Virus record (IMG/VR): IMGVR_UViG_3300031784_000002
Length of the DNA: 64,000 nt
Source of the DNA: a virus
Lineage: Duplodnaviria; Caudoviricetes
Direction: 5' to 3' (one strand)
Positions 34,201 to 49,848 of this stretch are shown here, one piece after another (position 1 is the first letter of the stretch; every line of letters begins with the position of its first letter). Below the pieces are notes generated by a model. The model had not been told where the DNA came from and searched no databases. It saw only the letters and a program-made list of their open reading frames with translations. The translations under genes and the position numbers were made by a program.

Positions 34201-37200
34201 AAAACTGTTCTATTCTTTCTTTCCTTGGTGGTAATGGTATTCTTGTAGATGGTAATAAGATTGCTAGTCAAAACGAAGCAATCGTTCCCGAACTTGGAGA
34301 AAGACCTACTGCAGGAGAAGGACCGGAATTTGGTAAGTCAATGGTTGCTGCAACCTTTACCATGGTATCTTTTGGTGGTATTGGTTGGAGAACAATTAAC
34401 GATGGATATGCACAGGTTGTTTCTTGTTTCCAAATTTTCTGCCGTTATGCATCCTTAACTCAGTCGGGTGGTTACCTATCAATCACTAACTCCGCTACAA
34501 ACTTTGGAGATTTTTCTCTTAGATCCACAGGTTTCAGTCCAAATGCTTTTGCATTTGATAAGGGACGTATTGCCGCAACTGGCACTAGAGACGGACTTCA
34601 AACACTCAAGGTCATTGGACTTGGTAGAACCGACCAAGATCTTTATGTTTTACAATTCTTAGATAATAATCTTGCCAATAGAACTGGTGATTTCAAACCA
34701 GTTGTAACAAGTCAAGAATTTAACGGTGGTCAAATTAGCACCACAACAAACATTTTCAACATTTCAGGTCACCCATTCAGTAACTTAGATCCAGTTGTAT
34801 ATCTTGGAAATGAAAACGACGCAAATCCACAGTTTATTAGTGGAATGGTTCCAGGAAACCAATATTATGTTTCATATATTGATGCATCTAATTTCTACCT
34901 CTACCAAGATGAAGGTTTAGAAACCATTGTAACTATTGGATCTACATTTGTAGGCATTAATACATTATCTAAAAATAATCAAGAATTTTTTGTAGAAGAA
35001 ATCTTTGATACTCATGGTTCATACCAAACAGTCAGTCTTGCATCAACTTCAAGTACACTTAAGTTTGTATCTGGAAGACAAATTACTCAAACCGTAACAG
35101 GGGGTAATGCAGTTGGTTATGCACTGACATTTAATTCAACCTCAAGACAACTTGTTGTTTCTGTAGAGGCTGTTGCTGGAGTTAGGAGATTCTTCTCCAC
35201 TGCGGGTGGAAATATTAGTGATCACAATGCATCCCCAGTTTCAATTGGTGTAACTGCTGTTGCTGGAATAACAACATATAAAACGGTAGACTTCAAAGTA
35301 GATTCTACTAATACAGGAACCGTTATTGCTGGTATTAGCACACTTCCAGAAAATTACTACTTACATTTCCATAGACCATCTATTATTAACTCTTCTGGTC
35401 ATACATGGGAATATTCTGGATCTGGAACTGATTACAATGCACTTCCTCAAAATGGTGGTAAAGGTGATGCTGCAACTGAACAGGTTTCAGAACTTGGTGG
35501 TAGAGTATATGCTTCTGGTACTAATGAACTTGGTGACTTTAAGATCGGTGATCAGATTACTGCATTTAACAGAACTGGTAACATTATCTTCAACAACAAA
35601 GTTACAATCGGTCAGTTAGATAGTATTCGTCTTTCACTCTCTGGTGGTGTAGCCGTTGAGGAATTCTCTACAGACGTAAATCTTGGAGAAGGTGAGATTG
35701 GTGGACCACAGAATAAGAGAGTTTCTACTCAACTTGCTGTAAGATCTTTCCTTGGAAATAGACTTGGGACATTCATTGATAAGACGGTATCTGCAAATGC
35801 AGTTCCGAATGCAGTTGTTCAGTTAAATGCTAATGGCCAAATTAACCCAGATCTAATTCCTCCAAAAGTTGTTAATTATAACATTACCAACGTTGGTGGC
35901 GGCAGAACTATGTTATCCAACCAAATTCCATCAATTAATATTCTTCAGGGGGACACTGTTGTTGAGCCGGATGATTCTTATGTACTCGTTAATGATGTTT
36001 TAAGTCAATATCTGGTCTTAGATACTGATGGAAGAGATTATAACTTCAATAATGGTAATGTAGTTACTTCCGCACTTGCTGAAGCAGTTACTGGCGTTGT
36101 TACGGCACCTCCTAGAGGACTTGCAATTGGTGTTGGTACAACTGGGTACGTAGATTATAATTACGTTGGTTATGGAACCACAGGCCTTGTTAAGGGCGTG
36201 ATGTTGGGTGGTATAATTAATGCTGCTGGATCTGGATATAATGTCGCTGGAGTTTATACTGGAGTACAATTACTCACACAGACAGGTGTAGGTACTCAAG
36301 CCACTGCTAATATTACGGTTAGTGCTGGTGGTAGTGTAACGAGTGTAGATATTCATGGTGGTGGTAGGTACTACGCAAGTGGAAACATTGTTTCTGCTGC
36401 GGCTACTGCTTTGGGTGGAAGAACTGGTGGATCTGACTTCCAGTTCACTATTAATGACGTTGAAACTAGACTTTACATTGGTCTTACAAATAATCAAAAG
36501 TTTGCTGGTTCTTCAGCTCTGGCCGATTATATTGCAGATAATGATGCAGCTGGTATTTCTACAGTATTAACTACAAGATATGAAGTAACCTTTACACCTA
36601 CAGATATTTCGGTTGGAGGTAATATTGACTTCATAAATGATAGAATTGTGGTTGGAGCCGGTAACAGTTTTGTTAATGGAGATCCAATCATTTATGACGC
36701 AAATGGTGGTAACATTATTACTGTTGGTGGTCTTGGTATTATTAACTTGTCTACTTACTATGTTAAGGTAGTTGGAGCGGGTACTTCAGTTGAATTACAC
36801 AGAACATATCAGTTAAATGATCCATTAGATCTAACTGGTAGTGGAACAGGTACACACAAACTTGCAAGAGCTGTAGTAAACGTAGAAGAGGATGCTCTCG
36901 TAATAGTTGGTCACGGATATTCAACTGGTACTCCAGTTAGAGTGACTGGATCAACACCAGTTGGAATTGATACTCATGCATTCTACTATGTTGGTTCAAT
37001 AACAACTAACTCATTTACATTCCACGAAACGCAATCTGATGCATTGTCTTCCGTAAATGGAGTAAGTTTCAATACAATTGCAATTGGATCAACTTCTACT
37101 GGTACAATAACTCTAACAAAACAAAACGTAAGATATGCTTCTGTTGTTAATACTTCATCCACAAATCCCAATAACTGGGCTTTACTTGCTAGAGACAGTA

Positions 37201-38177
37201 TTGACGCTTCTAACATTGTATCTGGAGTAATTTCACCTACAAGACTAGGAACTGGATCTGCAAACTCAGACACTGTTCTTACCGGTACTTCGGAATATAA
37301 GAAGAATGTCTTCTCAGTGGGCATTGGTACGACTCAACCATTAGGTGTAAGTTCTTATACAAGTGCAGATTTAGCTGCAGGTGGAGTTGGAGTTAACACA
37401 TATTATGGTTCATTAAATTTTACAGTCACTAGAGCTGCTGGATCTGCAGATCTTTATTCAACTCTTGGTGTTGCAAGATTTAAGACCAGTACCTTCTCTG
37501 TAGATACTGATGGTAATGTTCAGATTAAAAATTCACTAACTGGTGATGTTGATGCTGCTACTCTAGGTGGTCAAACCGGTGCTTATTATCTAAACTCACT
37601 AAATCATACTGGCGCTGTTCCTATTACCAGGGGTGGTACTGGTCAAAATGGTGTTCCTGCTGCAGGTGCAATTCTGCAGGGTAATGGAACTGCTTATAAC
37701 TTAACTACTGCTCCAATATTTACAGGTATCACAACCTTCAGTGGCGGCACTGCATCATCTTCAACAACAACTGGACAGGTTGTAATTACTGGTGGTCTTG
37801 GAGTTAGTGGAAATATTAACCTAGGAGGAACCTTAAATGCGGTTTCCAAGTCATTCTTAATTGATCACCCAACAAAACCAGGATACAAACTCCAATATGG
37901 TTCTCTTGAGGGTCCAGAAAATGGAGTATATGTAAGAGGTAAACTTGTTGGTTCGGATACAATTCAACTTCCAGATTACTGGACTGGATTAGTTGATGAA
38001 GAAACAATTACCGTAACATTAACTCCAATTGGACAAACTCCAGTTCTACATAGTGCAGTAAGTACAAGTATTTCTGAAGTAAAGGTAGCTAGTGCAGGTG
38101 ATATTAACTGTTACTATGTTGTTTACGCAGAAAGAAAGGATACTGAAAAACTTGTTGTAGAATTTGAGGGGGTTTGA
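31239..38177 (+). CDS. Tail fibre or tailspike: Mtd-type N-terminal domain, Thr/Ser/Val repeats, pectin-lyase-like beta-helix, C-terminal chaperone-like domain
   Basis: MTKQVQLRRGTTAEHATFTGAVGELTIDT is Mtd_N-like. GSDSNDG...PLATIRKA...TILVETGEYVE...SIIGDSLR is a beta-helix entry motif. SKSFLIDHPTKPGYKLQYGSLEGPE is a common fibre C-terminal domain. Confidence 0.8.
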   Translation: MTKQVQLRRGTTAEHATFTGAVGELTIDTSKDIAVVHDGVTTGGHELVGVAATGQTIVNKDGLAIGSSIASSPLTVIGNSYISGIGTFGDDVNVGSDLTVSGDATFAGITTTLGVTIGVGNTDLIVNGTARITNTLSIGTSTITLNGNTNTISAETASFTRLSVSGENVTVATFGKTVTNTVSSGSTSIPVNNTTSLLVGDLVNVTGILTHVPIVGLGTTSVTSFYETGSTTSISTTVSAGSTVIGVSTDVGISTSNFISVAGIITNVPIVGFTTTSLGNVYNLVSITGVASTVSSASTSFPVNATTNVIVGDYVSVANSTTGAILVNRQQILGLGSTDGTPYYLTINTTSISTTVSIGSTIISIGSTSGITTSSFITVSGIITNAQVVGVITTGLTTSYQTSGSTTVASTVATGSTVISVASTSGIVVGSAIDITGIFDKVRVTGIGLTTITIGAGNTYNSTISSGLALTSFLVSETLNYAALIGSGSTSNQVLPSGTSVNVNSFITPSIPVVIIGSSVGTNLGIGFTVTYERLTTPTGPAILIGSGNTSNQSIPVGTAVSYTFLNNVRSTIIIGTGNTSTSVISAGSSLNIIRQESVQSDLNINNLKAVGITTIEQLVLSGLTFPTIDGAKGQVLATDGAGNIGFTTGGGGGGSNVILRVSSKTGSDSNDGKILPLATIRKATQLASMVGEPVTILVETGEYVEDNPIIVYDEVSIIGDSLRNIVVRPQNAGKDLFKVRNGCYLTGMTFNDYINPTTKVPQHTYNYSIAFDDPYDSSISRTGYAATAIVDITNAVYTPSTGILTVTTATPHQLYSPNSVRLSGLAFTCGYDEVGVSTFRYTNTTGVSTCTTVNVHGLSTGSKVFLAGLAFTCSAEHAGVTTTIFPDGTSQYGRIFTVTSVGSTNTFTFNAGISTIGHNYVSGGTVQKALIYPEANSDGRIDFGVISVGSSTTFTIRAGVTTVPHYYTQDGTARISKPIINKSPYIQNCSILSFLGGNGILVDGNKIASQNEAIVPELGERPTAGEGPEFGKSMVAATFTMVSFGGIGWRTINDGYAQVVSCFQIFCRYASLTQSGGYLSITNSATNFGDFSLRSTGFSPNAFAFDKGRIAATGTRDGLQTLKVIGLGRTDQDLYVLQFLDNNLANRTGDFKPVVTSQEFNGGQISTTTNIFNISGHPFSNLDPVVYLGNENDANPQFISGMVPGNQYYVSYIDASNFYLYQDEGLETIVTIGSTFVGINTLSKNNQEFFVEEIFDTHGSYQTVSLASTSSTLKFVSGRQITQTVTGGNAVGYALTFNSTSRQLVVSVEAVAGVRRFFSTAGGNISDHNASPVSIGVTAVAGITTYKTVDFKVDSTNTGTVIAGISTLPENYYLHFHRPSIINSSGHTWEYSGSGTDYNALPQNGGKGDAATEQVSELGGRVYASGTNELGDFKIGDQITAFNRTGNIIFNNKVTIGQLDSIRLSLSGGVAVEEFSTDVNLGEGEIGGPQNKRVSTQLAVRSFLGNRLGTFIDKTVSANAVPNAVVQLNANGQINPDLIPPKVVNYNITNVGGGRTMLSNQIPSINILQGDTVVEPDDSYVLVNDVLSQYLVLDTDGRDYNFNNGNVVTSALAEAVTGVVTAPPRGLAIGVGTTGYVDYNYVGYGTTGLVKGVMLGGIINAAGSGYNVAGVYTGVQLLTQTGVGTQATANITVSAGGSVTSVDIHGGGRYYASGNIVSAAATALGGRTGGSDFQFTINDVETRLYIGLTNNQKFAGSSALADYIADNDAAGISTVLTTRYEVTFTPTDISVGGNIDFINDRIVVGAGNSFVNGDPIIYDANGGNIITVGGLGIINLSTYYVKVVGAGTSVELHRTYQLNDPLDLTGSGTGTHKLARAVVNVEEDALVIVGHGYSTGTPVRVTGSTPVGIDTHAFYYVGSITTNSFTFHETQSDALSSVNGVSFNTIAIGSTSTGTITLTKQNVRYASVVNTSSTNPNNWALLARDSIDASNIVSGVISPTRLGTGSANSDTVLTGTSEYKKNVFSVGIGTTQPLGVSSYTSADLAAGGVGVNTYYGSLNFTVTRAAGSADLYSTLGVARFKTSTFSVDTDGNVQIKNSLTGDVDAATLGGQTGAYYLNSLNHTGAVPITRGGTGQNGVPAAGAILQGNGTAYNLTTAPIFTGITTFSGGTASSSTTTGQVVITGGLGVSGNINLGGTLNAVSKSFLIDHPTKPGYKLQYGSLEGPENGVYVRGKLVGSDTIQLPDYWTGLVDEETITVTLTPIGQTPVLHSAVSTSISEVKVASAGDINCYYVVYAERKDTEKLVVEFEGV

Positions 38178-38180
38178 TAG

Positions 38181-39626
38181 ATGACAATATCGGTAGGAAG
38201 TTCTTCTTTTATTTCTGATGGATTAATTTTATATTTTAATCCATCAAACCCCAAAAATTACCTATTGAATGAAATTGAGGTTTTATTAATTGGTGGTGGG
38301 GGAGGTGGATCGGAAAATCAATATGATGATGGATCCGGAGGTGGTGGAGGGGGATTTTTACAGAGGGTTACGAATGTCTCTTCATCTACAGCTTATACTA
38401 TTACTGTGGGTAATGGAGGTGGAACTGGTGGAAGTGGATCTGTCGGTGGAAATACCAGTGCTTTTGGGTTAATTGCTTATGGCGGCGGCGGTGGGTCTAG
38501 TCATAGGAGTAGTGGTGGAACTGTTGATGGAGCTAGTGGCGGTGGATCAGGTGGACAATACTCTTCAGATATTCCAGTAGTAGGTAGAGCAATATATGGC
38601 GATCAAGGAAATGATGGTGGTGCAAGTATAACTTATGGTGGAGGAGGTGGAGGAGGTGCGGGCTCTGCAGGACAAGGTTCAATAACTTATGGTCATGGCG
38701 GTTATGGAGGCAAAGGTAGAGCTTCTTCAATATCTGGAACTTTAAGATATTATTCTGGAGGCGGAGGCGGTTTTGGTTATGCTAATTTGGGTAGAGGTGG
38801 AATCGGTGGAGGTGGTTCTACGGGAGTTTCTCCACAAGCGAATAGTGGTGGTGGAGGAGGTGGAGGAAAAACCACCGGAAACAGAGCTACTGGTGGTGCT
38901 CAGGGAGTTGTGATAATTAGATACCCTGGTCCACAAAAAGCAACAGGTGGTAATACTATTACTTATATTGGTGGATATACTATTCATACATTTACTTCAA
39001 CTGGAACGTTTACCACTCTTGGCACACCATCTAATGGTTCTACTGTTTATGGATTGTATGATCTGAGTAATAATTTAAATTCTGCAAATACCTTAGGAGC
39101 GTCTTATGCTCCTACTTACAATATTAGTGCATCGGGAACTTTACTTTTTGATGGATCTGATGATATTATTCAGTTTGATAGATCCCCCATTTTAAGTAAT
39201 TTGAAAGCTTCTTTGGGAGGTGAAGGTTATACTGTTTTAATCTGGGCAAGATCTACGAGTACCACTGGCCAGTGGAGAAAATTAATAGGAAATGATGATG
39301 GCGAGAATTATATTGATCTATACCAAAATCCTAGTGGATATTATCATCAGGAGTGTGGATCAACGTTATATGTTGATGGTACACAAGTATCTCAGGGATC
39401 TTATTATATGCCAAACGCCGGTTATCATTTTTGGGGAGCCACAAATTATAACTCCGGCACACTAAATAATCCCAGTAGAGGATTTGGAATATTTAATGAA
39501 CCAGATAGAGTTAGATCATATCAACTTGCAGGAAATTTGGGAGAAGTTTTTATATTCAATAGAGTATTAACTACAAACGAGATTAATTTAATTTTTAATT
39601 CCACAAAAAGTAGGTATGGACTATAA
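38181..39626 (+). CDS. Cassette 1 gene A: glycine-rich domain inserted in a LamG/ConA-like lectin domain (putative adhesin)
   Basis: DGLILYFNPSNPKNY, then EVLLIGGGGGG...TIHTFTSTGTF, then a LamG-like C-terminus (LGEVFIFNRVLTTNEI...RYGL). Confidence 0.75.
   Translation: MTISVGSSSFISDGLILYFNPSNPKNYLLNEIEVLLIGGGGGGSENQYDDGSGGGGGGFLQRVTNVSSSTAYTITVGNGGGTGGSGSVGGNTSAFGLIAYGGGGGSSHRSSGGTVDGASGGGSGGQYSSDIPVVGRAIYGDQGNDGGASITYGGGGGGGAGSAGQGSITYGHGGYGGKGRASSISGTLRYYSGGGGGFGYANLGRGGIGGGGSTGVSPQANSGGGGGGGKTTGNRATGGAQGVVIIRYPGPQKATGGNTITYIGGYTIHTFTSTGTFTTLGTPSNGSTVYGLYDLSNNLNSANTLGASYAPTYNISASGTLLFDGSDDIIQFDRSPILSNLKASLGGEGYTVLIWARSTSTTGQWRKLIGNDDGENYIDLYQNPSGYYHQECGSTLYVDGTQVSQGSYYMPNAGYHFWGATNYNSGTLNNPSRGFGIFNEPDRVRSYQLAGNLGEVFIFNRVLTTNEINLIFNSTKSRYGL
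38919..38999 (+). repeat. 81-bp perfect direct repeat, arm L copy 1 (partner 41491-41571)
   Basis: Base-by-base identical: AGATACCCTGGTCCACAAAAAG...CATACATTTACTTCA. Confidence 0.95.
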
Positions 39627-39724
39627 TGGCTAACTCAGATAAAAATATTCTAATAACTCCCAATAAAAATGCCTCTGGTATTCCAGAAATTGCTCTGACT
39701 GGTTTTGGCAATTCTACAATTTCA
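39617..39724 (+). repeat. 108-bp perfect direct repeat, arm R copy 1 (partner 42189-42296), spanning the A/B gene junction
   Basis: Base-by-base identical: TGGACTATAATGGCTAACTCAG...CAATTCTACAATTTCA. Confidence 0.95.
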
Positions 39725-40723
39725 GCAAATATTCCAGATTCTAACATTGGTACTTTAAATTTTTCTACAAGTACAAAAAATATTTTTTCAATTGATAGTG
39801 ATCAAAATTCAAATATCCAACTATCTATAGGAAGCACTACATCTGGTAGTTTTTTAGAGCTCAAAAATTTTGGAAATTTAAGTATAAACACTCCAAAAAC
39901 TACAATATATGGAAAGGGGTTGAAATTATCAAAAGTAAAACCAACAACATCTCCTTCCGTTAACGGAAAAATTGCTTACGATTCCGTACAAAAAACTTTG
40001 GTAGTTAGCAATTCAACTACATGGACTTCTTATAGTTCTCCAACTTATGTACAAGATGGACTTATAGTTTACTACGATGCTTCCAGACCAGACTCATATC
40101 CAGGAAGTGGTAGCGTAGTTTACGATATTAGTGGAAGTTCTATTGGATCTGGTGAAATGCATGGAACAATGGGAAATGTTGGGTTTAGTACTGAAAGAGG
40201 TGGAGCCTTAACATTTAATGGATCCAATTCTTATATTGATGTCAATAATAGTAGTGATTTATTGCGAGATTTTTCTGGATATACTGTAGAGTGGTATACC
40301 AAGATAACTACAGCTACTGCATGTGAAATTTTTGGTAATTATGGTCCTTCGTTTACAACTAATTACTTGTGGATTGCAGCAAGATATGGACATTATTTAA
40401 ATGGAGCAAATCCTTATTTTGTTGCAGGACCTTACACTGAGGCTGCTCCTCTTGAACCGGGATACACTTATCATGGAGCGGTGACTAGAGATCCTCAAAC
40501 TAGAAATACGATGTTGTATTTGAATGGATTTTTAAATACAAGTTCTACTGCAGATGCAAGAATAGGAAATGGAATCAATTATAGAATTGGATTGGATGTA
40601 AACTCAAGTACGGCCGAACCTTTTGGTGGTAGTTTATATTTAATCAGAGTCTATAATAGACCTCTTACCCCTAAAGAAATTCAAATAAATTTTGAGTCCG
40701 CAAGGACCAGAGTTGGATTATAA
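39626..40723 (+). CDS. Cassette 1 gene B: conserved MANSDK N-terminal domain plus LamG-like C-terminal domain
   Basis: MANSDKNILITPNK...; then DGLIVYYDASRPDSYPGSGS...VYNRPLTPKEI. Confidence 0.75.
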   Translation: MANSDKNILITPNKNASGIPEIALTGFGNSTISANIPDSNIGTLNFSTSTKNIFSIDSDQNSNIQLSIGSTTSGSFLELKNFGNLSINTPKTTIYGKGLKLSKVKPTTSPSVNGKIAYDSVQKTLVVSNSTTWTSYSSPTYVQDGLIVYYDASRPDSYPGSGSVVYDISGSSIGSGEMHGTMGNVGFSTERGGALTFNGSNSYIDVNNSSDLLRDFSGYTVEWYTKITTATACEIFGNYGPSFTTNYLWIAARYGHYLNGANPYFVAGPYTEAAPLEPGYTYHGAVTRDPQTRNTMLYLNGFLNTSSTADARIGNGINYRIGLDVNSSTAEPFGGSLYLIRVYNRPLTPKEIQINFESARTRVGL

Positions 40724-40726
40724 ATA
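40719..40726 (+). promoter_or_regulatory. Late promoter TATAAATA for cassette 2
   Basis: Exact consensus overlapping the stop of cassette 1 gene B. Confidence 0.8.
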
Positions 40727-40758
40727 TCTTTTATGAAGACTAATAATAGGAAAAAATA

Positions 40759-42198
40759 ATGACCATAAGAGTTGGATCTGGAATAATTAAAGATGGTCTT
40801 ATTTTGCATCTTGATGCAGCTGATCAGTTAAATTATCTACTTTCCGTTGTTGAAGTTCTTGTGGTCGCTGGCGGTGGTGGTGGCGGTGTTTGTTATGGAG
40901 GAGGAGGTGGTGGAGGAGGAGTAGTATATTCAAATTCGTATTCCGTAACACCTGGTACTGGTATAAACGTTTCCATAGGTAATGGTGGAACTAATCAAGT
41001 AAACGTTGTCGGTAATGGTGGCCCTGGAGGCAACTCTTCTTTTGGTAATTTAACTGCTATTGGTGGCGGCTACGGCGGCGGTAATTGTGGTAATGCAGGA
41101 GGTTCTGGGGGATCAGGAGGCGGTGGATCTGGTACAGGGTCTGCAAGAGTATCTGGTGGTACAGGAACTCCTGCGATGGGTTTTGATGGAGAAACTTCTA
41201 TTCCCGCTGGTGGAGGTGGAGGTGGAGGTGCTGGTTCTTTAGGATTTAGAAGAGCTGGCGGGAATGGACTTCCATTTACCATTTCCGGATCTATTCAATA
41301 CTATGGAGGAGGTGGTTCCGGCGGTGGACCAGAGGACATGCCAGGCGGAGCTGGCGGTGGTGGAATGGGGGGCACTGCAGTTGCTTCTGGAAGAGCAGAT
41401 GCGACTCCTAACACTGGCGGTGGAGGTGGAGGTAGTATTATTTCCGGTTCTGGAGTTTCTGGTATAGGTGGATCAGGAATAGTAATTGTAAGATACCCTG
41501 GTCCACAAAAAGCAACAGGTGGTAATACTATTACTTATATTGGTGGATATACTATTCATACATTTACTTCAGCTGGAACATTTACTCCAAATTCTTTACC
41601 ATCAAATAATAGTTCCATCAACGGATTATTTGATTTAACTGGAGATGGTAATACGGCTTTTCAATCTGGGGGAGTAACTTATAATGCAAGTAACTCTGGT
41701 GCATTAAATTTTGATGGGAGTAATGATTTTTTAACTTCTCCAGCATCCTCTTTGTTTTCATTTGGGACAGGGGATTTTACTTTAGAAATTTTGATATATC
41801 CAGAAAGTTTTTCTACTTATACCCATATGATCGCTCTTCCAGATCAAAATACATTTGCACTTAAAGCCAATGCATCTGATGGCCAAATATACTTTTATAG
41901 TCCATCTTATAATACTTTTGGTTCTACTTCGGGTTGGACTTTATCTTTGAATACTTGGAATCATGTAGTTTTTAAAAGAGAATCTTCTATAGGTTATGCT
42001 TTTTTAAATGGTATTTCTAGGGGATCTAAATCTGGATTTATTAACAATTTTACATCACGAGTATTAAATATCCACAATGGATGGCCAAATGAATTTACTC
42101 AATGTAGAATATCAAATGTAATGATATATAATAGATCATTAACTACTTCAGAGATCCAACAAAACTTCAATGCACTCAGAGGGAGGTTTGGACTATAA
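40759..42198 (+). CDS. Cassette 2 gene A: glycine-rich domain plus LamG-like domain
   Basis: DGLILHLDAADQLNY, EVLVVAGGGGG..., C-terminal IYNRSLTTSEIQQNFNALRGRFGL. Confidence 0.75.
   Translation: MTIRVGSGIIKDGLILHLDAADQLNYLLSVVEVLVVAGGGGGGVCYGGGGGGGGVVYSNSYSVTPGTGINVSIGNGGTNQVNVVGNGGPGGNSSFGNLTAIGGGYGGGNCGNAGGSGGSGGGGSGTGSARVSGGTGTPAMGFDGETSIPAGGGGGGGAGSLGFRRAGGNGLPFTISGSIQYYGGGGSGGGPEDMPGGAGGGGMGGTAVASGRADATPNTGGGGGGSIISGSGVSGIGGSGIVIVRYPGPQKATGGNTITYIGGYTIHTFTSAGTFTPNSLPSNNSSINGLFDLTGDGNTAFQSGGVTYNASNSGALNFDGSNDFLTSPASSLFSFGTGDFTLEILIYPESFSTYTHMIALPDQNTFALKANASDGQIYFYSPSYNTFGSTSGWTLSLNTWNHVVFKRESSIGYAFLNGISRGSKSGFINNFTSRVLNIHNGWPNEFTQCRISNVMIYNRSLTTSEIQQNFNALRGRFGL
41491..41571 (+). repeat. 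81-bp perfect direct repeat, arm L copy 2
   Basis: Identical to 38919-38999, offset 2572 bp. Confidence 0.95.
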
Positions 42199-42296
42199 TG
42201 GCTAACTCAGATAAAAATATTCTAATAACTCCCAATAAAAATGCCTCTGGTATTCCAGAAATTGCTCTGACTGGTTTTGGCAATTCTACAATTTCA
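42189..42296 (+). repeat. 108-bp perfect direct repeat, arm R copy 2
   Basis: Identical to 39617-39724, offset 2572 bp. Confidence 0.95.
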
Positions 42297-43277
42297 ATAA
42301 GAGTACCAGATGACACAACAGGAACTCTTTCTTTTGAAAATTCCGGTAGAAGATTATTTTCAATAGATACCAACTTAAGTTCGGGAGAATTGTTTAAAGT
42401 TGTAAATAATACTTCCCAAGCACCAGTATTCAATGTTAATTCTAATGGAAATTTAATTTTATCGCCAAAATTAGGGACAACAAATATTAGTGGAAATGGA
42501 ATAACACTTCCATCTTATAGTAGCAATTCATTACCGGATGGAGAAGAAGGACTTTTAATATATGATAGAACACTAAAAATTGTACGTATATATTCAGATA
42601 ATAAATGGGTAAATTTGGGAAATCCACCAATTGTAACTAGTGGATTGGCCCTTAGATTGGATGCAAGTGATATTCGTTCATATCCCGGAAATGGTTCAAT
42701 ATGGTATGATCTAAGTGGATATAATAACAACTGCAATTGGAGCAGCACACCTTCATTTGATCATAGGGGATTTTTTAGATTCAATGGATCAAGTCATGCA
42801 GGAGTTATTACCAATAATGGAAGTTTGAATACCAATTATGAACAAACTTTAATAATGGTACTGAAACATAATTATAACTCAGGAAGAAGAAATCCATGGA
42901 ACCAAGCATACGCTGGTTTTGGAACTTGGACTCATGAACAGGGGGAAAATATTAGTTGGTATTTTGGTGATGGTGGCGGAGATAATAGTCCATACTTGGG
43001 ATATAGTAGCCCATCAACACCCCGAAATAGATGGAACATTCTTGCTACTGTTAGAAATATTTCAAATTATCAGTGGTATTATGATGGAATTTCTACCGGT
43101 GTTTCTTCAAATCCTTATGCAGTTTTAACAGATAGTAGCGCAAATATTACAATAGGAAATGGATATGCTGGATATTGGCAAGGTGACATGGGAATGGTTC
43201 TTATGTACAGAAGAGCTTTGACTACTGACGAAATTCTCCAGACTTATAATGTCATAAGACTTCGTTATCCGATATAA
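42198..43277 (+). CDS. Cassette 2 gene B: MANSDK domain plus LamG-like domain
   Basis: The first 33 aa are identical to gene B1. SGLALRLDASDIRSYPGNGSIWYDLSG...MYRRALTTDEI. Confidence 0.75.
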   Translation: MANSDKNILITPNKNASGIPEIALTGFGNSTISIRVPDDTTGTLSFENSGRRLFSIDTNLSSGELFKVVNNTSQAPVFNVNSNGNLILSPKLGTTNISGNGITLPSYSSNSLPDGEEGLLIYDRTLKIVRIYSDNKWVNLGNPPIVTSGLALRLDASDIRSYPGNGSIWYDLSGYNNNCNWSSTPSFDHRGFFRFNGSSHAGVITNNGSLNTNYEQTLIMVLKHNYNSGRRNPWNQAYAGFGTWTHEQGENISWYFGDGGGDNSPYLGYSSPSTPRNRWNILATVRNISNYQWYYDGISTGVSSNPYAVLTDSSANITIGNGYAGYWQGDMGMVLMYRRALTTDEILQTYNVIRLRYPI

Positions 43278-43280
43278 ATA
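43273..43280 (+). promoter_or_regulatory. Late promoter TATAAATA for cassette 3
   Basis: Exact consensus overlapping the stop of cassette 2 gene B. Confidence 0.8.
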
Positions 43281-43309
43281 TAAAAAAAGATGATTTTACA
43301 ATAATATAA

Positions 43310-44890
43310 ATGGCAATAAGTATTGGCCAAACTTCTATTACTCCAACTAATGCAGATCTTCTTTTTTACTTAGATCCTGCGATTAGTTATAATTACACTT
43401 TATCTGACGTTGAAGTTCTCGTAGTCGCTGGAGGCGGCGGAGGAGGCGGCTGGGGAGGAGGAGGAGGCGGTGGGGGTGTAGTTTATAATAGATTGTATCC
43501 GGTGACTCCTGGTACTGGAATTAATATTTCTATTGGAAATGGAGGAAGTCCAGGAACTAACGCATATACCTCCGGTGGAGATGGAGAAAGTTCAGTTTTT
43601 GGTACTATTACTGCAATAGGTGGAGGAGGCGGCGGACATTATAATGGGAATAATGGTAGAGCTGGTGGATCCGGAGGAGGCGGCGGTGGAGCCTCAAATG
43701 CAACTTATGGATTCGTGACCACTGGTGGCTCTGGTACTCCGAGACAAGGAAATAATGGAGGTAGAGGTGGTGGGCTCCCTGACGGTTCAATCTATAATCC
43801 AGGTGGAGGTGGAGGTGGAGCTGGAGAACGTGGATATGATTTTGATATTAATCTTAGACTGGGTGGAAAGGGTGGAGATGGACTGCCATTTAATATTTCT
43901 GGAAGATTAAAATATTATGGCGGCGGTGGAGGAGGCCATACAGATGGTAGAGGTGGAACCAACTCAACTTCTTTTGGAGGAAAAGGTGGTGGAGGTCGTG
44001 GAGGAAATTATGGCATTCCACGAAGAGGATTAGATGGTGCTCCAAATACTGGAGGTGGGGGAGGGGGATCTTATGGAACCTCATCCGGATATGAGTGTGG
44101 TGCTGGTGGTTCTGGAGTAGTCATCATTCGTTATCCAGGATTACAAAAAGCATCAGGTGGAAACACTATCACTCAGGTTGATGGTTATACTATTCACACG
44201 TTTACTTCGGGTGGAACTTTTACTCCAAATACAGCACCAACAAATGGAGGTGGTTTGAATGGACTTCAAGATTTGGGTCCAAATGGATATAATTTCTATC
44301 AAGTCAATACACCAACTTATAATACAAGTAGATCTGGAACAATTGATTTCAACGGAACTAGTGCATACTTGGAATCCGTTTTACCAACAAGATATAGTGC
44401 AGCATCCGTTTATACTATTAATATGTGGTTTAAAATTAATGGTGCCCCTAGTGGTGCAAGTGGAAATCAGGCCAATTTCTTGATAGATTTAGATGTTACT
44501 GGTGGATCTTTCAATGGATTGATAGTTGATTGGCAGCCATACTTGTCAGGAAGTTCGCAAATGAGATTTGCATATGCAACTAGACCATCTAGTGGTGGAT
44601 CTTATACACCTCTACTAGGATCAGTTTTAACTCAGGGGGTATGGTATAATGGTTGTGTTGTAAAAAATGGAACTACAGAAACCAGACTATATTTAAATGG
44701 ATCTTTAGAATCTACATATTCTGGCAATATGCCTTCTTGGGGCACAAATACTGTCCGAATAGCTAGATGGACTGATGGAACAGTATATTCCAATTGTTCT
44801 GTTGGTGTAGTTTGGGTTCAAAATAAAGCCTTAACTGCTTCTGAAGTTTTGCAAAACTTTAATGCACTTAAAGGGAGGTATCAAGTCTGA
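43310..44890 (+). CDS. Cassette 3 gene A: glycine-rich domain plus LamG-like domain
   Basis: DLLFYLDPAISYNY, EVLVVAGGGGG..., TIHTFTSGGTF, C-terminal NKALTASEVLQNFNALKGRYQV. Confidence 0.75.
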   Translation: MAISIGQTSITPTNADLLFYLDPAISYNYTLSDVEVLVVAGGGGGGGWGGGGGGGGVVYNRLYPVTPGTGINISIGNGGSPGTNAYTSGGDGESSVFGTITAIGGGGGGHYNGNNGRAGGSGGGGGGASNATYGFVTTGGSGTPRQGNNGGRGGGLPDGSIYNPGGGGGGAGERGYDFDINLRLGGKGGDGLPFNISGRLKYYGGGGGGHTDGRGGTNSTSFGGKGGGGRGGNYGIPRRGLDGAPNTGGGGGGSYGTSSGYECGAGGSGVVIIRYPGLQKASGGNTITQVDGYTIHTFTSGGTFTPNTAPTNGGGLNGLQDLGPNGYNFYQVNTPTYNTSRSGTIDFNGTSAYLESVLPTRYSAASVYTINMWFKINGAPSGASGNQANFLIDLDVTGGSFNGLIVDWQPYLSGSSQMRFAYATRPSSGGSYTPLLGSVLTQGVWYNGCVVKNGTTETRLYLNGSLESTYSGNMPSWGTNTVRIARWTDGTVYSNCSVGVVWVQNKALTASEVLQNFNALKGRYQV

Positions 44891-46044
44891 TGGCTAATTC
44901 TGATAAAGATATTTTAATAACGCCTAATAAAAATGTTTCTGGGTTACCAGAAATAAGATTTACTGGATTTGGTAATTCAAGTCTCTCTCTTGTAGTTGCA
45001 GATGATAATACTGGAAAGATAAACTTTGTAAGTTCTGGTGCAACTGCTTTTTCAATTGATACCAATGTAAATAATGGAGTATTACTTAACGTTGCTGACA
45101 GAAATTCAGTACCACTTTTAGAAATTTCCGACACAAATTCTTTACTTGGATATGAATTGGGTACTGTTTCCGTGGAAGGTGATGGAATAGTATTACCTTC
45201 TTATGGAACAACTGCATTACCAATAGGAACTCCAGAAGGAACTATTGTTTATGATGATAACCATCAAGTAGCAAAAGTATATAATGGCACTGTTTGGACA
45301 CCAATTGGTGGCAGAAAAAATGGATTAACTGCTGATACCGCGGCAGAATCAACAGAACAATTAATCACAGATTATCCGGATTCTCCAACTGGTTTTTATT
45401 GGATTCTCGTTGATAGAATCCCACAACTATTTTGGGTTGACATGGTTTATGAGGGTGGAGGATGGATTCTTGTATTAAATAATAGAATTAATACAAATGG
45501 AATGACAGGATTGAATTATCAATCAGCAACTACTAGAGTAATTAATTATAGAGGAAATTATTATTCAGCAACAGGAAATAATCCTACAAACTTTAATCTT
45601 TGGGTTGGATTAGATGCATGGGTAAAATTAGCTAATGCCAACTTTAGTACATCAAATAGAGTTGTTGAATTTGTTGCCTCTGCATATCAACCCCTTGGGG
45701 CAGTTCATCAACATACAAAAAGGGCTAGTTGGGATTGGAGTGGTTGGGGTGGTGCTTACGCTTGGCAAGGTCTTGCAAATACTTATTTAGAGTTGGGTGG
45801 ATCTCTACCAGGATTATACTCATATCACGCAGCAAATGGATATAATTTAACTACTTTTGATGTAGACCAAGATGTAGCTGGTAACAATTGTTCTACTGCT
45901 TATTTTAATCAACCGAATTGGTATGGTGCATGTTGGTCTGGTAGTCCTTTTGGGGGAGGTGGTTCCGGCAGTCATGCTGATGCTTGGTTCTGGGATAGTT
46001 CTACTAGCGACTATCACAATTATGGTGCTTTATACGTTAGGTAA
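44890..46044 (+). CDS. Cassette 3 gene B: MANSDK domain plus fibrinogen-like C-terminal domain
   Basis: MANSDKDILITPNK...; then GFYWI...LFWVDMVYEGGGWILV, TTFDVDQD...NC and WYGACW, which resemble fibrinogen C-terminal domain motifs. Confidence 0.65.
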   Translation: MANSDKDILITPNKNVSGLPEIRFTGFGNSSLSLVVADDNTGKINFVSSGATAFSIDTNVNNGVLLNVADRNSVPLLEISDTNSLLGYELGTVSVEGDGIVLPSYGTTALPIGTPEGTIVYDDNHQVAKVYNGTVWTPIGGRKNGLTADTAAESTEQLITDYPDSPTGFYWILVDRIPQLFWVDMVYEGGGWILVLNNRINTNGMTGLNYQSATTRVINYRGNYYSATGNNPTNFNLWVGLDAWVKLANANFSTSNRVVEFVASAYQPLGAVHQHTKRASWDWSGWGGAYAWQGLANTYLELGGSLPGLYSYHAANGYNLTTFDVDQDVAGNNCSTAYFNQPNWYGACWSGSPFGGGGSGSHADAWFWDSSTSDYHNYGALYVR

Positions 46045-46049
46045 AATTT

Positions 46050-46451
46050 ATGGAACCAATTAAAAGGAAATCAAACAAATTAAATATTTTAAAGTCTGAG
46101 GATGTATATAAATTAGTTTGGATAAATGATGACGAAATTATTTTTTCAGAAAAATATATTATTTCTTTTGATTCTGAAAATAATCCAACTAATTTCAATC
46201 TAACAGAAATCATTGAACATAAAAAACATTGTTGTTTAGATATTGATGACGAAAATTTTCAAGTAATTGAAGAAGAAAATTTTAGTTTTATTATTGGTGT
46301 AAATGATGCAATTAATGATTTGCGACCTGGATCAAAATATCAGTTAAACGGTAAAACATTTACTTATTGGGAACATGATTCTCAACCACCGTCTTGGGAA
46401 GAAATTTCTTTACACATAAAAAAAATGCAGAGGGATTTGGATTCAAACTAG
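46050..46451 (+). CDS. Small hypothetical protein, C-terminus resembling XkdW-type tail fibre chaperones
   Basis: DAINDLRPGSKY...W....QPPSWEEI pattern, and it ends the fibre cluster. Confidence 0.5.
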   Translation: MEPIKRKSNKLNILKSEDVYKLVWINDDEIIFSEKYIISFDSENNPTNFNLTEIIEHKKHCCLDIDDENFQVIEEENFSFIIGVNDAINDLRPGSKYQLNGKTFTYWEHDSQPPSWEEISLHIKKMQRDLDSN

Positions 46452-46470: not shown

Positions 46471-46478
46471 TATAAATA
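46471..46478 (+). promoter_or_regulatory. Late promoter TATAAATA for gp13
   Basis: Exact consensus, 28 nt before the gp13 ATG. Confidence 0.85.
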
Positions 46479-46505
46479 CCTCTAGAAGACTAGGGGTATT
46501 TTTTT
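46474..46505 (+). terminator. 12-bp hairpin plus U tract overlapping the late promoter and the gp13 ribosome-binding region
   Basis: AAATACCTCTAG-AAGA-CTAGGGGTATTT followed by TTTT and then ATG. Confidence 0.7.
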
Positions 46506-47337: not shown

Positions 47338-48768
47338 ATGTCACCACTCAATTCTTATTTTTTACAAGGATCTCCGAGTGAGCAAAGACTTATTCAAGAT
47401 CTAATCAACGAACAACTTAAGATGTATGGACAAGATGTTCTATACATGCCAAGAAGAATTATTGGTGAAAATACAGTCATTAAAGAAGTCACTGCTTCAA
47501 AATTTGATGATAGTTTTCGTATTGAAGCCTATCTAATGAACTTTGAAGGTTTCAGTGGGAACGGAGATATTCTTAGTAAGTTTGGAGTCAGAAGTAATGA
47601 TGAAATTAATCTCGTAATCTCCAAAGAAAGATATGATGATTTTATTTCTCCTTTGTTGAAATTATGGCCAGAAACTGAAAGAAAACTTGCATATAGACCA
47701 CAAGAAGGAGATTTAATTTGGTTTCCTCTTGACGAGTCTTTATTTGAAATCAAGTATGTTGAAGGTAAAAAACCTTTCTATCAACTTAATAATCTTTATG
47801 TCTATGAGTTAAGATGTGAGAGATTTGAATATGAAGATGAGATTATTGATGTTCCAGAGGTTGATCCAACGGGTATTGAAGTCAACGAATCAATCAAAGA
47901 TCTTGGAAACATTTATACTATTCAAATGGTTGGAACTGGAGCTACAACTGCAGTTGCAACTGTAGGTTTTGCTACTACTAATCCAAATTCCAAGTCTGTT
48001 CAGTATGTTGATCTTATCAATGACGGATATGGATATACTTCCGCTCCTGTAGTTTCAATCTCTACTGCTCCGGCCGGAGGACTAACTGCAACTGCTGTTG
48101 CAATTATGACAAGTAGATCATCAAATCAGAAACTATCAATTGATAAAATTCTCATTACAAATCCAGGATTTGGATATACTGAACCACCAGTTATCATGAT
48201 TTCTGGTGGAGGTGGTGCTGGAGGTATCGCTACCGCAGTTATTAATAATAGAGTTCTTGGAATTGTTGGGTTATCTTCCGGTGGAGTTGGATATACTACT
48301 ACTCCACAAGTTACGATTCAAAGAATATTCATTCCTTCTGGTGCAGGCATTTCTTCAAACATCAACAATGCTCAAGCAGAAGCTGTAATCAATTCAAATG
48401 GAGTTGTTGTTGCGGTTCGTTATTCAAACGCTGGTGCTGGATACACATTTACTCCAACAATATCTTTCACAAATCCAACTGCAACCTCTTTCGGTGATTA
48501 CGATTATAACGAAGTTGTTACCGGAACAAGAACAGGTACAACTGGTTATGTAAGAAGTTGGGATGCTACAAATAGAGTTCTTAAGCTTTCTGTAGTTGAT
48601 GGAACTTTTGCAAGAGGTGAAGCGATTGTTGGTGTCGCAGCAAGTTACAAAGTATCTACGGTTCAGACAAATGAATTCTTAGACCTTTACGCAGAAAATA
48701 TTCAAATTGAAAATGCTGCTGATAATATTGTAGATTTCAGTCAGAGAAATCCATTTGGCGAATACTAA
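47338..48768 (+). CDS. gp14: Neck protein gp14 with an internal repeat insertion
   Basis: EQRLIQDLINEQLKMYGQDVLYMPR, SKFG and C-terminal DFSQRNPFGEY motifs. Confidence 0.92.
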   Translation: MSPLNSYFLQGSPSEQRLIQDLINEQLKMYGQDVLYMPRRIIGENTVIKEVTASKFDDSFRIEAYLMNFEGFSGNGDILSKFGVRSNDEINLVISKERYDDFISPLLKLWPETERKLAYRPQEGDLIWFPLDESLFEIKYVEGKKPFYQLNNLYVYELRCERFEYEDEIIDVPEVDPTGIEVNESIKDLGNIYTIQMVGTGATTAVATVGFATTNPNSKSVQYVDLINDGYGYTSAPVVSISTAPAGGLTATAVAIMTSRSSNQKLSIDKILITNPGFGYTEPPVIMISGGGGAGGIATAVINNRVLGIVGLSSGGVGYTTTPQVTIQRIFIPSGAGISSNINNAQAEAVINSNGVVVAVRYSNAGAGYTFTPTISFTNPTATSFGDYDYNEVVTGTRTGTTGYVRSWDATNRVLKLSVVDGTFARGEAIVGVAASYKVSTVQTNEFLDLYAENIQIENAADNIVDFSQRNPFGEY

Positions 48769-48795: not shown

Positions 48796-49848
48796 ATGAT
48801 ATCAAATTATTTTTATCACGAAATATTGAGAAAGACCATCGTATCTTTCGGTACTCTTTTTAATGATATTCAAATCAAACATAAAGATAATGCAGGCGAT
48901 GATTTTAGTATCTTAACTGTGCCGATTGCTTATGGTCCGGTTCAAAAGTTTTTAGCTAGAATCGAACAAGTTCCCGACCTAAAAAAGAGAGTAGCTATAA
49001 CTCTTCCAAGAATGTCATTTGAAATGACTGGTATTCAATATGATCCTTCTCGAAAGTCTTCGACAATGCAGACTTTTAAAACAGTTGATAAGACTAGTAA
49101 TAATGAATTAACACAGGTTTTTATGCCTGTTCCATATAATGTTAATATTCGTCTTTCAATTATGTCTAAATTGAATGAAGATGCTTTGCAAATTGTAGAA
49201 CAAATACTACCTTACTTTCAACCACATTTTAACTTAACAGTAGATCTCGTATCGAGTATTGGAGAAAAACGAGATATTCCAATGATTCTGGAGAGAATCA
49301 CAATGGATGATCAGTATGAGGGTGATTTTACTACAAGAAGGATTTTAATTTATACTCTAGATTTTACCGCAAAAACATACCTATTTGGTCCAGTTGGAAA
49401 TGGTAATGAGGCGTTAATCAAACAGGTTCAAGTCGATTATTACACAAATACAAATAGAGTTAATCCTTCAAGACAACTTAGATATGTTGCTGAACCAAGA
49501 GCAATTAAAGATTACAATAACGATGAAATTACTATAGTTTCAGAAAATATTTCTGAAAATGTCACTGAGTTTAATGTATCTGATGCAACTGGATTAATTG
49601 TAAATTCATACATTCAAATTGACAATGAATCCATGTTTATTCGTAGTATTAATGGAAATACTTTATTGGTAAATAGAGGTCAAGATAATACTGATATTAC
49701 AACTCACTCATCCGGAACTGCGGTTAATGTGATTAATAATGCAGATGATGAACTAATAGATATGGATGATGACTTTGGATTCAGTGAATATCGTTATGAT
49801 TTTGCTGACGGTAAGATTTATAGTACAACAAAAGGAATTGATGTATGA
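48796..49848 (+). CDS. gp15: Tail sheath stabilizer / head-tail joining protein gp15
   Basis: YFYHEILRKTIVSFGTLFN, VPIAYGPVQKFLARI, LPRMSFE and QILPYFQP motifs. Confidence 0.95.
   Translation: MISNYFYHEILRKTIVSFGTLFNDIQIKHKDNAGDDFSILTVPIAYGPVQKFLARIEQVPDLKKRVAITLPRMSFEMTGIQYDPSRKSSTMQTFKTVDKTSNNELTQVFMPVPYNVNIRLSIMSKLNEDALQIVEQILPYFQPHFNLTVDLVSSIGEKRDIPMILERITMDDQYEGDFTTRRILIYTLDFTAKTYLFGPVGNGNEALIKQVQVDYYTNTNRVNPSRQLRYVAEPRAIKDYNNDEITIVSENISENVTEFNVSDATGLIVNSYIQIDNESMFIRSINGNTLLVNRGQDNTDITTHSSGTAVNVINNADDELIDMDDDFGFSEYRYDFADGKIYSTTKGIDV

Follow-up and report, generated by a model that had tools for sequence, protein, structure and literature searches.

The locus described here is rather likely to be a tandemly triplicated, probably late-transcribed host-recognition module, each unit of which encodes two different receptor-binding-type proteins, A and B, and we read it as a recombining array of independent receptor-binding proteins. 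A preliminary description of this DNA had already assigned the array to receptor binding, and the domain identities reported below support that assignment, while the locus establishes no new kind of machine. How marine cyanomyophages recognize their hosts is poorly understood, and the locus gives testable handles for predicting or engineering cyanophage host range in laboratory strains.

Organization of the array

The window (the whole 64,000-nucleotide stretch of DNA that was analysed) comes from an uncultured T4-like cyanomyophage whose major capsid protein is 84% identical to that of S-SCSM2R, its nearest cultured relative. The array lies between a gene for a 2312-aa fibre and the gp13, gp14 and gp15 neck genes downstream. 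As the preliminary description had it, an A-B pair is repeated three times, and the six ORFs and neighbouring features are as follows:

31239–38177, + strand: giant fibre gene (2312 aa) with an Mtd_N N-terminal domain, directly upstream of A1
38181–39626, + strand: A1 (481 aa), LamG jelly-roll with an inserted polyglycine (Gly_rich_2) domain
38919–38999, + strand: 81-bp perfect repeat, identical to 41491–41571, encoding RYPGPQKATGGNTITYIGGYTIHTFTS; putative 5′ arm of the exchangeable A-LamG segment
39617–39724, + strand: 108-bp perfect repeat, identical to 42189–42296; putative 3′ arm of the exchangeable A-LamG segment
39626–40723, + strand: B1 (365 aa), MANSDK N-terminal module (about residues 1–145) and LamG tip
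40719–40726, + strand: T4-type late-promoter motif TATAAATA, 33 nt upstream of the A2 start
40759–42198, + strand: A2 (479 aa), LamG with a TNF-like/polyglycine insert
42198–43277, + strand: B2 (359 aa), MANSDK module and LamG tip
43273–43280, + strand: late-promoter motif TATAAATA, 30 nt upstream of the A3 start
43310–44890, + strand: A3 (526 aa), LamG with a polyglycine insert
44890–46044, + strand: B3 (384 aa), MANSDK module and putative fibrinogen-related/intelectin-like tip (about residues 150–384)
46050–46451, + strand: 133-aa ORF after the last B gene, conserved in the comparison of related loci
46474–46501, + strand: terminator-like hairpin (12 pairs, then a T run), closing the array

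The late-promoter motif occurs six times in the window, always on the + strand and no more than about 50 nt ahead of a gene start, and its copies before A2 and A3 suggest promoter-A-B transcription units. The hairpin overlaps the late-promoter motif of gp13. Each A stop codon overlaps the following B start by 1 nt (TAATG, TAATG and TGATG), exactly as first described. However, overlaps of 1 or 4 nt and gaps of 1–2 nt are found at other junctions of the late operon (27150; 49845–49848; 2129/2131; 47336/47338), so that the A/B overlap is no specific sign of an A-B partnership.

The giant fibre matches Pfam Mtd_N (E 1e-10), and its C-terminal ∼120 aa are 36–60% identical across nearly all related loci. 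Neither Pfam nor PHROG gave a family for the 133-aa ORF; in other loci the C-terminal half stands alone as an ORF of 65 aa, situated between an A-like gene and a MANSDK-only gene. In S-SCSM2R the array is absent altogether, and it is therefore dispensable for this virion design.

The A proteins

All three A proteins match Pfam Gly_rich_2 (PF21722), with 69, 69 and 92 bits for A1, A2 and A3 against a cut-off of 24.3 (E 1e-19 to 1e-26). Their C-terminal parts match Laminin_G_3 (PF13385, a concanavalin A-like lectin family), A2 with the full-length protein as query (E 1e-16) and the other two with the C-terminal part cut out (A1, E 4e-6 and 27.6 bits, exactly at the cut-off; A3, E 3e-11 and 43.9 bits). 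Both domains proposed earlier for A are thus present, but the Gly-rich one does not stand in front of LamG; in the A2 model it is nested inside. The AlphaFold2 model of A2 (pLDDT 88) predicts the first LamG strand at residues 10–25, followed by a TNF-like/polyglycine insert (about 26–252), a conserved β-meander (253–277) and the LamG body (280–479). Since matches of this model to solved LamG folds (VIA-align, Z 20–22) span residues 10 to 471, the Gly-rich domain is an insert placed after the first LamG strand. Residues 26–252 superpose on the Bxb1 tail tip (9d93_Qa; Z 13.4, rmsd 3.0 Å, 166 aligned residues, 34% identity) and on the Pam3 fibre (7ypx_A; Z 13.1, rmsd 2.5 Å, 164 aligned residues, 32% identity). 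As modelled, this part of A is a member of the polyglycine-II receptor-binding fold, among whose known members are also S16 gp38 and ALK.

Marine phages are rich in polyglycine adhesin domains, which are known from S16, Pam3 and mycobacteriophages, and those of the array are nested in a lectin scaffold that accepts other inserts too: LamG bodies 75–77% identical to that of A2 carry quite different inserts in other proteins. In many unrelated proteins the polyglycine module ends, at its C-terminus, in the conserved sequence GGYTIHTFTSSGTF, which was on that ground rejected as a B-specific docking element.

The likeness of A to gp38 suggested previously would extend to the polyglycine fold but not to the means of attachment. 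In gp38, an N-terminal attachment domain binds the tip of the gp37 trimer. No separate N-terminal attachment domain was seen in the predicted A2 model, where residues 10–25 are LamG strand 1; with both termini lying in the LamG fold, A lacks a domain of the gp38 type. At the sequence level the relation consists of a weak PHROG match to phrog_863 ‘tail fiber assembly’; no PDB sequence match was found for A, and the S16 gp38 structure 6F45 was not among the 50 structure matches listed, which were filled by LamG matches. No anchor for A was identified, and that A is part of the virion we infer from the type of its domains and from its place in the late operon.

The B proteins

B1, B2 and B3 have the MANSDK N-terminus in common and differ in their C-terminal domain, in agreement with the preliminary description. 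The N-terminal module (∼100–145 aa) matched neither a Pfam family nor a PDB entry, and no PHROG family consistently. It heads at least 3,399 protein clusters (50% identity) of proteins of 133–4,333 aa, nearly always starting at residue 1; among 50,697 deposited phage records it is found only in S-SKS1, in an internal position. Some MANSDK-headed proteins carry collagen repeats, some end in Peptidase_S74 or Peptidase_G2 intramolecular-chaperone domains, which are known from trimeric fibres, and some have trimer-only tips. Others have no tip at all, one cluster of such MANSDK-only proteins having 221 members. The occurrence of the module at the head of thousands of fibres supports the earlier proposal that B anchors to the virion, the conserved N-terminus apparently behaving as a virion or fibre anchor. 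A precedent for virion location is provided by the S-PM2 virion structural protein p176, which carries a B-like LamG end. With its thousands of clusters, MANSDK is a large unannotated N-terminal fibre module that marks the exchangeable fibre slot of these phages.

The C-terminal domains of B likewise appear to occupy a swappable lectin slot, a view that the comparison of sequences supports. Full-length B1 and B2 match Laminin_G_3. B3 alone falls below the Pfam cut-off for PF00147 (E 0.016, 15.5 bits; cut-off 22), whereas 12 of its 14 homologues match that family (best E 7e-7), and a profile of the homologues matches ficolins, tenascins and intelectin-1 (E 1e-9), its alignment to fibrinogen beta covering residues 166–379. 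The fold model of B3 is poor (pLDDT 44). These profile matches suggest that the B3 tip is fibrinogen-related or intelectin-like. Of the five LamG domains and one fibrinogen-like domain originally counted, the former are all borne out by Laminin_G_3, and the latter is supported by way of the homologue profile rather than B3 itself.

Repeats and module exchange

The 81-bp and 108-bp perfect repeats flank 617 bp of divergent A-LamG sequence, and the longer one runs from the end of A across the stop/start overlap into B, of which it includes the first 33 codons. In L001 and L003, analogous perfect repeats (93 bp and 103 bp) are found at B starts. When A2 of the window is compared with contig L001, the Gly part is 80% identical and the LamG part 31%, while the B2 tip beside that A2 is still 73% identical. 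Identity matrices of this kind show that modules have been swapped independently across related genomes.

We propose that B is a short, probably trimeric fibre that would be fixed to the virion by its conserved N-terminal MANSDK module, and whose exchangeable C-terminal lectin (LamG, LamG and fibrinogen/intelectin-like in the three units) may contact host surface glycans. A would be a two-lobed adhesin with no anchor domain, a LamG jelly-roll bearing the TNF-like/polyglycine-II domain in its first loop. The units would play a part in host range and would diversify by homologous recombination at conserved arms, one where the polyglycine domain ends and one at the A-stop/B-start junction, and arms so placed would allow the heads to be swapped independently of each other. 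The perfect repeats thereby offer a concrete mechanism for head swapping.

Attachment of A and B

In the window and in 9 related loci, A lies directly before B and overlaps it by 1 nt. Similar arrays are present in L001, L002, L003 and L007, and in rearranged form in L004. The survey of MANSDK genes for a Gly-rich partner that had been suggested earlier thus finds linkage in those nine loci, but for about 64 of 78 MANSDK loci no A gene lies within 10 kb; in 29 of 31 polyglycine loci a MANSDK gene is absent from the surrounding 6–8 kb, and L084 and L089 contain tandem A-type genes alone. Judged from these loci, A-B linkage is restricted to certain lineages. A second architecture is seen in L037, L083 and L087, where a 771–808-aa LamG protein with C-terminal polyglycine is followed by a 65-aa ORF and then by a MANSDK-only protein of ∼150 aa.

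It is possible, though we hold this only tentatively, that A is attached to some other structure, such as the baseplate or the conserved C-terminal domain of the giant fibre, and acts independently of B, their pairing reflecting only the duplication of a two-gene segment. In T-even phages g37 is followed by g38, the same order as that of the giant fibre gene and A. Such attachment is consistent with the position of A directly 3′ of the giant fibre gene in every A-bearing locus (the window, L001–L004, L007, L020, L034/35 and L037), with the conservation of the giant-fibre C-terminus and with the existence of A-type genes without MANSDK genes. It also has a parallel in Bxb1, whose central fibre bears separate polyglycine proteins (PMC13252515). 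However, A2 and A3 follow B genes rather than the giant fibre gene, and loci lacking an A gene have the conserved giant-fibre C-terminus as well.

The preliminary description inferred three bi-lectin units, in each of which A would sit on its cognate B as a cap, in the manner of gp38 on gp37. The immediate 5′ position of A, promoter-A-B units consistent with co-expression, a recurrent polyglycine-MANSDK association hinted at by the second architecture, and tipless MANSDK-only proteins that could be adaptors all agree with capping. Nevertheless, the B tips, being lectins in their own right, would make an odd surface to cap; the LamG part of A varies independently of the B tip; tight overlaps are frequent all through the operon; and GGYTIHTFTSSGTF is a generic module end. 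Given that A and MANSDK genes are mostly unlinked and that A has no gp38-type attachment domain, capping is unproven and, if anything, disfavoured, and we regard it as unlikely, although the conserved parts of the two proteins may bind each other.

For B, an equally unlikely arrangement is attachment at the neck or collar, as whisker-like fibres standing in for T4 fibritin instead of fibres of the baseplate. In loci with enough flanking DNA the MANSDK genes have the giant fibre gene on one side and gp13 on the other. In the window, as in the many related loci that extend as far as gp13, they come after the genes for baseplate and fibres and directly precede gp13-gp14-gp15. This is the place of wac in T4, but the last tail-fibre gene (T4 gene 12) has that place just as well. 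Both wac and gp12 resemble B in being short fibres with a conserved N-terminal attachment part; their ends are a foldon and the gp12 head, whereas the B tips are lectins. No sequence relationship was detected between the MANSDK profile and either T4 protein by hhalign (probability ≤0.1%), single T4 sequences making this a weak test. Giant fibre-like proteins, too, contain MANSDK residues 15–113, as an internal repeat, which speaks against a whisker.

A combined reading, in which MANSDK is a hitherto undescribed universal plug for a docking site of T4-like marine myophages, phages of the window's clade fill that site with a mixed set of three fibres and the unanchored A adhesins ride on the conserved part of these fibres, seems to us improbable; it would make the locus a combinatorial, recombination-programmable receptor array, with six different lectin or polyglycine heads exchanged through perfect-repeat arms. 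In T4 (gp38), lambda (Tfa) and Mu (Tfa) the chaperone gene lies downstream of its fibre gene. That A is itself an assembly chaperone for a neighbouring fibre, like T4 gp38 or Tfa, is highly implausible: it adjoins fibre genes and its Gly-rich region weakly matches phrog_863 (E 3e-7 and 2e-5), but it is larger than B, has two hypervariable, laterally exchanged lectin-type lobes, does not follow the gene order of known chaperones, and contains a domain whose solved relatives are receptor-binding tips.

Comparison with known systems

The closest structural parallels to the A insert are gp24, the tail fibre of cyanophage Pam3 (7YPX), and a polyglycine-domain protein in the tail tip of mycobacteriophage Bxb1 (9D93 chain Qa), which share with modelled A2 residues 26–252 a TNF-like β-sandwich and a polyglycine lattice. 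In Pam3 gp24 this domain is the proposed receptor-binding tip (PMC9608196), and such a role has been proposed or shown for the polyglycine domains of Pam3 gp24 and S16 gp38 (PMC9608196; PMC11806420). Unlike A, with its unanchored domain nested in LamG, Pam3 gp24 docks on the baseplate through an N-terminal helical bundle and forms a trimer.

For mycobacteriophages, host-binding machineries have been predicted in which polyglycine-rich domains are joined with lectin or carbohydrate-binding modules (Cambillau and Goulet, as cited in PMC11806420), and there, as in the array, accessory lectin-like and polyglycine proteins are encoded beside the main receptor-binding protein. These belong to another phage group and host, and the account given in that citing paper describes no nested LamG/polyglycine domain, MANSDK fibre or triplicated array.

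With T2/S16 gp38 (6F45), A shares a glycine-rich adhesin module, conserved Gly motifs bounding variable loops, and a gene that adjoins a fibre gene. It differs from gp38 in size (480–526 aa versus ∼260 aa), in its additional LamG domain and in lacking the β-helix domain. The conserved motifs of gp38 are described as recombination points (PMC3157838; PMC9608196). The B3 tip, by its profile, resembles animal fibrinogen-related lectins (intelectin-1, ficolins and tenascin), a domain that in B3 would be carried on a phage fibre.

Genomic setting of the adhesin array

As judged from its sequence, this locus is best explained as an array of receptor-binding proteins undergoing recombination. Its six ORFs (window 38181-46044, + strand) encode, in the order A1-B1-A2-B2-A3-B3, three LamG plus polyglycine proteins (A) and three short fibres with a conserved MANSDK N-terminus (B), and they lie where the preliminary description had placed them, with the one-base overlap that it reported within every A/B pair (TAATG, TAATG and TGATG). 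Paralogues are 40-44% identical among the A proteins and 27-39% identical among the B proteins. The virus is a T4-like cyanomyophage whose major capsid protein shares 84% identity with its counterpart in Synechococcus phage S-SCSM2R, and the A2 protein cluster has been recorded on contigs as long as 235,939 bp. DNA megablast of the array region against deposited phages gave no matches. In S-SCSM2R, the nearest cultured phage, the giant protein is followed directly by gp13 without an array, and we therefore regard the array as accessory. The features surrounding and punctuating the array are as follows.

Features of the window
255-38177: run of large structural ORFs (4368, 2494, 1344 and 2312 aa)
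46050-46451: 133-aa ORF following B3, kept in related arrays
46474-46501: terminator-like hairpin (12 pairs, then a T run) at the 3' end of the array
25633, 40719, 43273, 46471, 57626 and 60554, + strand: TATAAATA late-promoter motif

All six TATAAATA motifs, a total not above chance for the window, are found on the + strand shortly upstream of gene starts. Since one of them precedes A2 and another A3, the repeat unit is best described as promoter-A-B. The hairpin overlaps the motif before gp13.

The giant fibre (2312 aa, 31239-38177) carries Mtd_N at its N-terminus and a conserved end, its last ~120 aa being 36-60% identical in nearly all related loci while its middle is variable. Because A, where present, always follows the giant fibre gene, it may bind the giant fibre.

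A proteins combine a LamG body with a polyglycine domain

Pfam Gly_rich_2 was matched by A1, A2 and A3, and Laminin_G_3 was detected in their C-terminal parts, for A2 with the full-length protein and for the other two with the excised part (A1 exactly at the cut-off, A3 clearly). An AlphaFold2 model of A2 built from 52 homologues (pLDDT 88) gave concanavalin-A-like matches in VIA-align (Z 20-22) with aligned residues running from 10 to 471, the tailspike of cyanopodophage Pan3 being among these matches (Z 19.5). This extent places the N-terminal strand DGLILHLDA within the jelly-roll; in the model, an insert after the first LamG strand accounts for the Gly-rich domain. The insert (residues 26-252) resembles the Bxb1 tail tip (9d93_Qa; Z 13.4, rmsd 3.0 Å, 166 aligned residues, 34% identity) and Pam3 fibre gp24 (7ypx_A; Z 13.1, rmsd 2.5 Å, 164 aligned residues, 32% identity). 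In Pam3 gp24 this TNF-like plus glycine-rich unit forms the distal, proposed receptor-binding tip, which its authors liken to S16 gp38 and ALK (PMC9608196), and the central fibre of Bxb1 bears polyglycine domains (PMC13252515).

Against the PDB, phmmer with the polyglycine part of A2 returned no matches and Foldseek with A2 returned LamG matches only. With A3 as query, tblastn against deposited phages reached LamG ends and the conserved motif only, since its low-complexity filter strips the Gly-rich part. The highly conserved RYPGPQKATGGNTITYIGGYTIHTFTSSGTFT closes the polyglycine module on its C-terminal side, and many unrelated viral proteins end right after it. The A family comprises at least 1,932 proteins at E ≤ 1e-5, every source-named one of which is labelled hypothetical. 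BFVD places the polyglycine domain in Pelagibacter phage HTVC025P, in Synechococcus phage Bellamy as part of a Gly-rich/LamG protein, and in Bathycoccus viruses; the last are represented by predicted proteins of two viruses, and the other matching entries are nameless. Bathycoccus viruses infect eukaryotic algae.

A LamG body like that of A2 occurs in database proteins P0031 and P0035 (75-77% identity) and P0043 and P0065 (64-67%), in which another domain replaces the polyglycine insert after the same first strand. LamG thus serves as a scaffold whose inserted head can be exchanged. P0031, P0035 and their kin had been considered as B-type proteins bearing the LamG head of A2, until reading them showed LamG proteins with other inserts. 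The model indicates no separate N-terminal attachment domain in A, which would make it a two-lobed adhesin without an anchor.

B proteins share a widespread N-terminal module

The C-terminal ends of B1 and B2 are Laminin_G_3 domains, and the B3 tip is probably fibrinogen-related or intelectin-like: the profile of its homologues matches intelectin-1 (E 1e-9) and aligns over residues 166-379 to fibrinogen beta, and PF00147 is detected in 12 of 14 homologues, B3 by itself falling under the Pfam cut-off. These assignments uphold the tally proposed earlier, with five domains of the LamG-like kind and one fibrinogen-like domain.

The first 100-145 residues of B form a module that is widespread in uncultured phages, its profile matching 3,399 cluster representatives of 133 to 4,333 aa at E ≤ 1e-3 (2,147 at ≤ 1e-10). 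Among 50,697 deposited phage records it was found only in S-SKS1, as an internal copy. The module nearly always starts at residue 1, and positions 15-113 are sometimes repeated internally; in P0205, P0206, P0216 and P0251 they occur 3-6 times within giant proteins, the largest of 3915 aa. The module is therefore used as a shaft repeat as well, and its N-terminus-specific part is limited to the first 14 residues. As in trimeric fibres, the C-terminal ends of some MANSDK-headed proteins are collagen repeats or intramolecular-chaperone domains (Peptidase_S74 or Peptidase_G2). Others consist of the module alone (~150 aa) and lack a tip domain; such proteins, which include an Atlas cluster of 221 members, could be adaptors or tip-less fibres. 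Examples from related loci are listed here.

MANSDK-only proteins
L037:3141-3596
L083:10516-10965
L087:8637-9104

No Pfam family covers the module, whole-protein scans having matched C-terminal parts only. Its profile gave no significant match to PDB sequences (best E 0.12) and no consistent family in PHROGs, where weak matches were scattered and the commonest, unannotated phrog_2415, was hit by 6 of 27 members. The AlphaFold2 model of B3 (pLDDT 44) was too low in confidence for a fold search of the module or the tip. In the window, as in most related loci whose flanks are long enough, a MANSDK gene sits between the giant fibre gene and gp13-gp15, the genes 3' of the array, which is the position that gene 12 and wac occupy in T4. 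B may accordingly be a neck fibre, synteny with wac being the one argument for this; however, hhalign found no relationship of the MANSDK profile to T4 wac, or to gp12. More generally, B would be a short fibre whose plug is conserved and whose lectin tip can be swapped.

Recombination and independent exchange of modules

Cassettes (A-B pairs) 1 and 2 share perfect repeats of 81 and 108 bp, both at an offset of 2572 bp, which flank 617 bp of divergent sequence encoding the LamG body of A. Perfect repeats of 93 and 103 bp are found at B starts in L001 and L003, between different cassette pairs. These repeats point to ongoing intragenomic recombination. Identity matrices comparing modules over five genomes show that these have been exchanged independently of one another. 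Between the window and L001, identity is 80% for the Gly part of A2, 31% for its LamG part and 73% for the B2 tip; the A3 LamG part is 57% identical to that of A3 in L007 and 26% to that in L001, where the A3 Gly part is 78% identical. In L004 and L007 every B tip differs. No sign of co-variation between the variable part of A and B was seen in these matrices.

Phages commonly carry tandem modular receptor-binding genes, and each of the three tip domains falls in a known family. What is new is the predicted nesting of polyglycine in LamG, the large MANSDK module without annotation, the perfect-repeat arms and the putative fibrinogen/intelectin-like tip on a phage fibre.

Linkage of A and B in other genomes

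The B-side survey covered 78 loci. L001, L002, L003 and L007 each carry three A-B pairs, and in L004 the order is rearranged to A-A-B-B-A-B. Short contigs L008, L013 and L015 carry a single overlapping pair, an A gene abuts a MANSDK start cut off by the contig end in L020, and L033-L035 and L037 have an A that does not overlap the MANSDK gene and is no more than 1 kb away from it. The other ~64 of the 78 loci carry a single MANSDK fibre without any A. On the A side, where the scan was seeded with the A alignment and, through poly-Gly patterns, reached remote polyglycine proteins instead of near relatives of A, a MANSDK gene was near a polyglycine gene in only 2 of 31 loci (L083 and L087) among the matches listed. 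In both, and in L037, a 771-808-aa protein with LamG and a C-terminal polyglycine domain is followed by a 65-aa ORF and a MANSDK-only protein. These counts indicate that A-B linkage is confined to certain lineages. Tandem polyglycine genes without a MANSDK gene occur in L084, L089, L102, L108 and L109, for example:

Tandem arrays of 3-4 polyglycine genes
L084:7873-13271
L089:1321-6891

The L084 array is flanked by small ORFs and ABC-transporter genes, with no recognisable tail genes.

That A caps B as gp38 caps its fibre, as first proposed, is not favoured: linkage in two architectures is a weak hint of association, but A appears to lack the attachment domain of gp38 members, and neither the linkage nor the co-variation data favour the idea. 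Prediction of the A2 + B2 complex (full length, own alignments) scored 0.00 without controls, which weighs neither way on binding. Docking of A and B via their conserved parts is possible.

Other genes at the 3' end of the array

The C-terminal half of the 133-aa ORF corresponds to the stand-alone 65-aa ORF (L037:2943-3140; L083:10316-10513), which has an A-like gene on one side and a MANSDK-only gene on the other. A Pfam scan of the 133-aa ORF and its 65-aa relatives found no families and so lends no support to a likeness to XkdW; any part that it plays in fibre assembly is conjectural. The gp14 homologue (window 47338-48768) has 476 aa, compared with 256 aa in T4, and its added C-terminal ~290 aa match repeats of baseplate and virion structural PHROGs.
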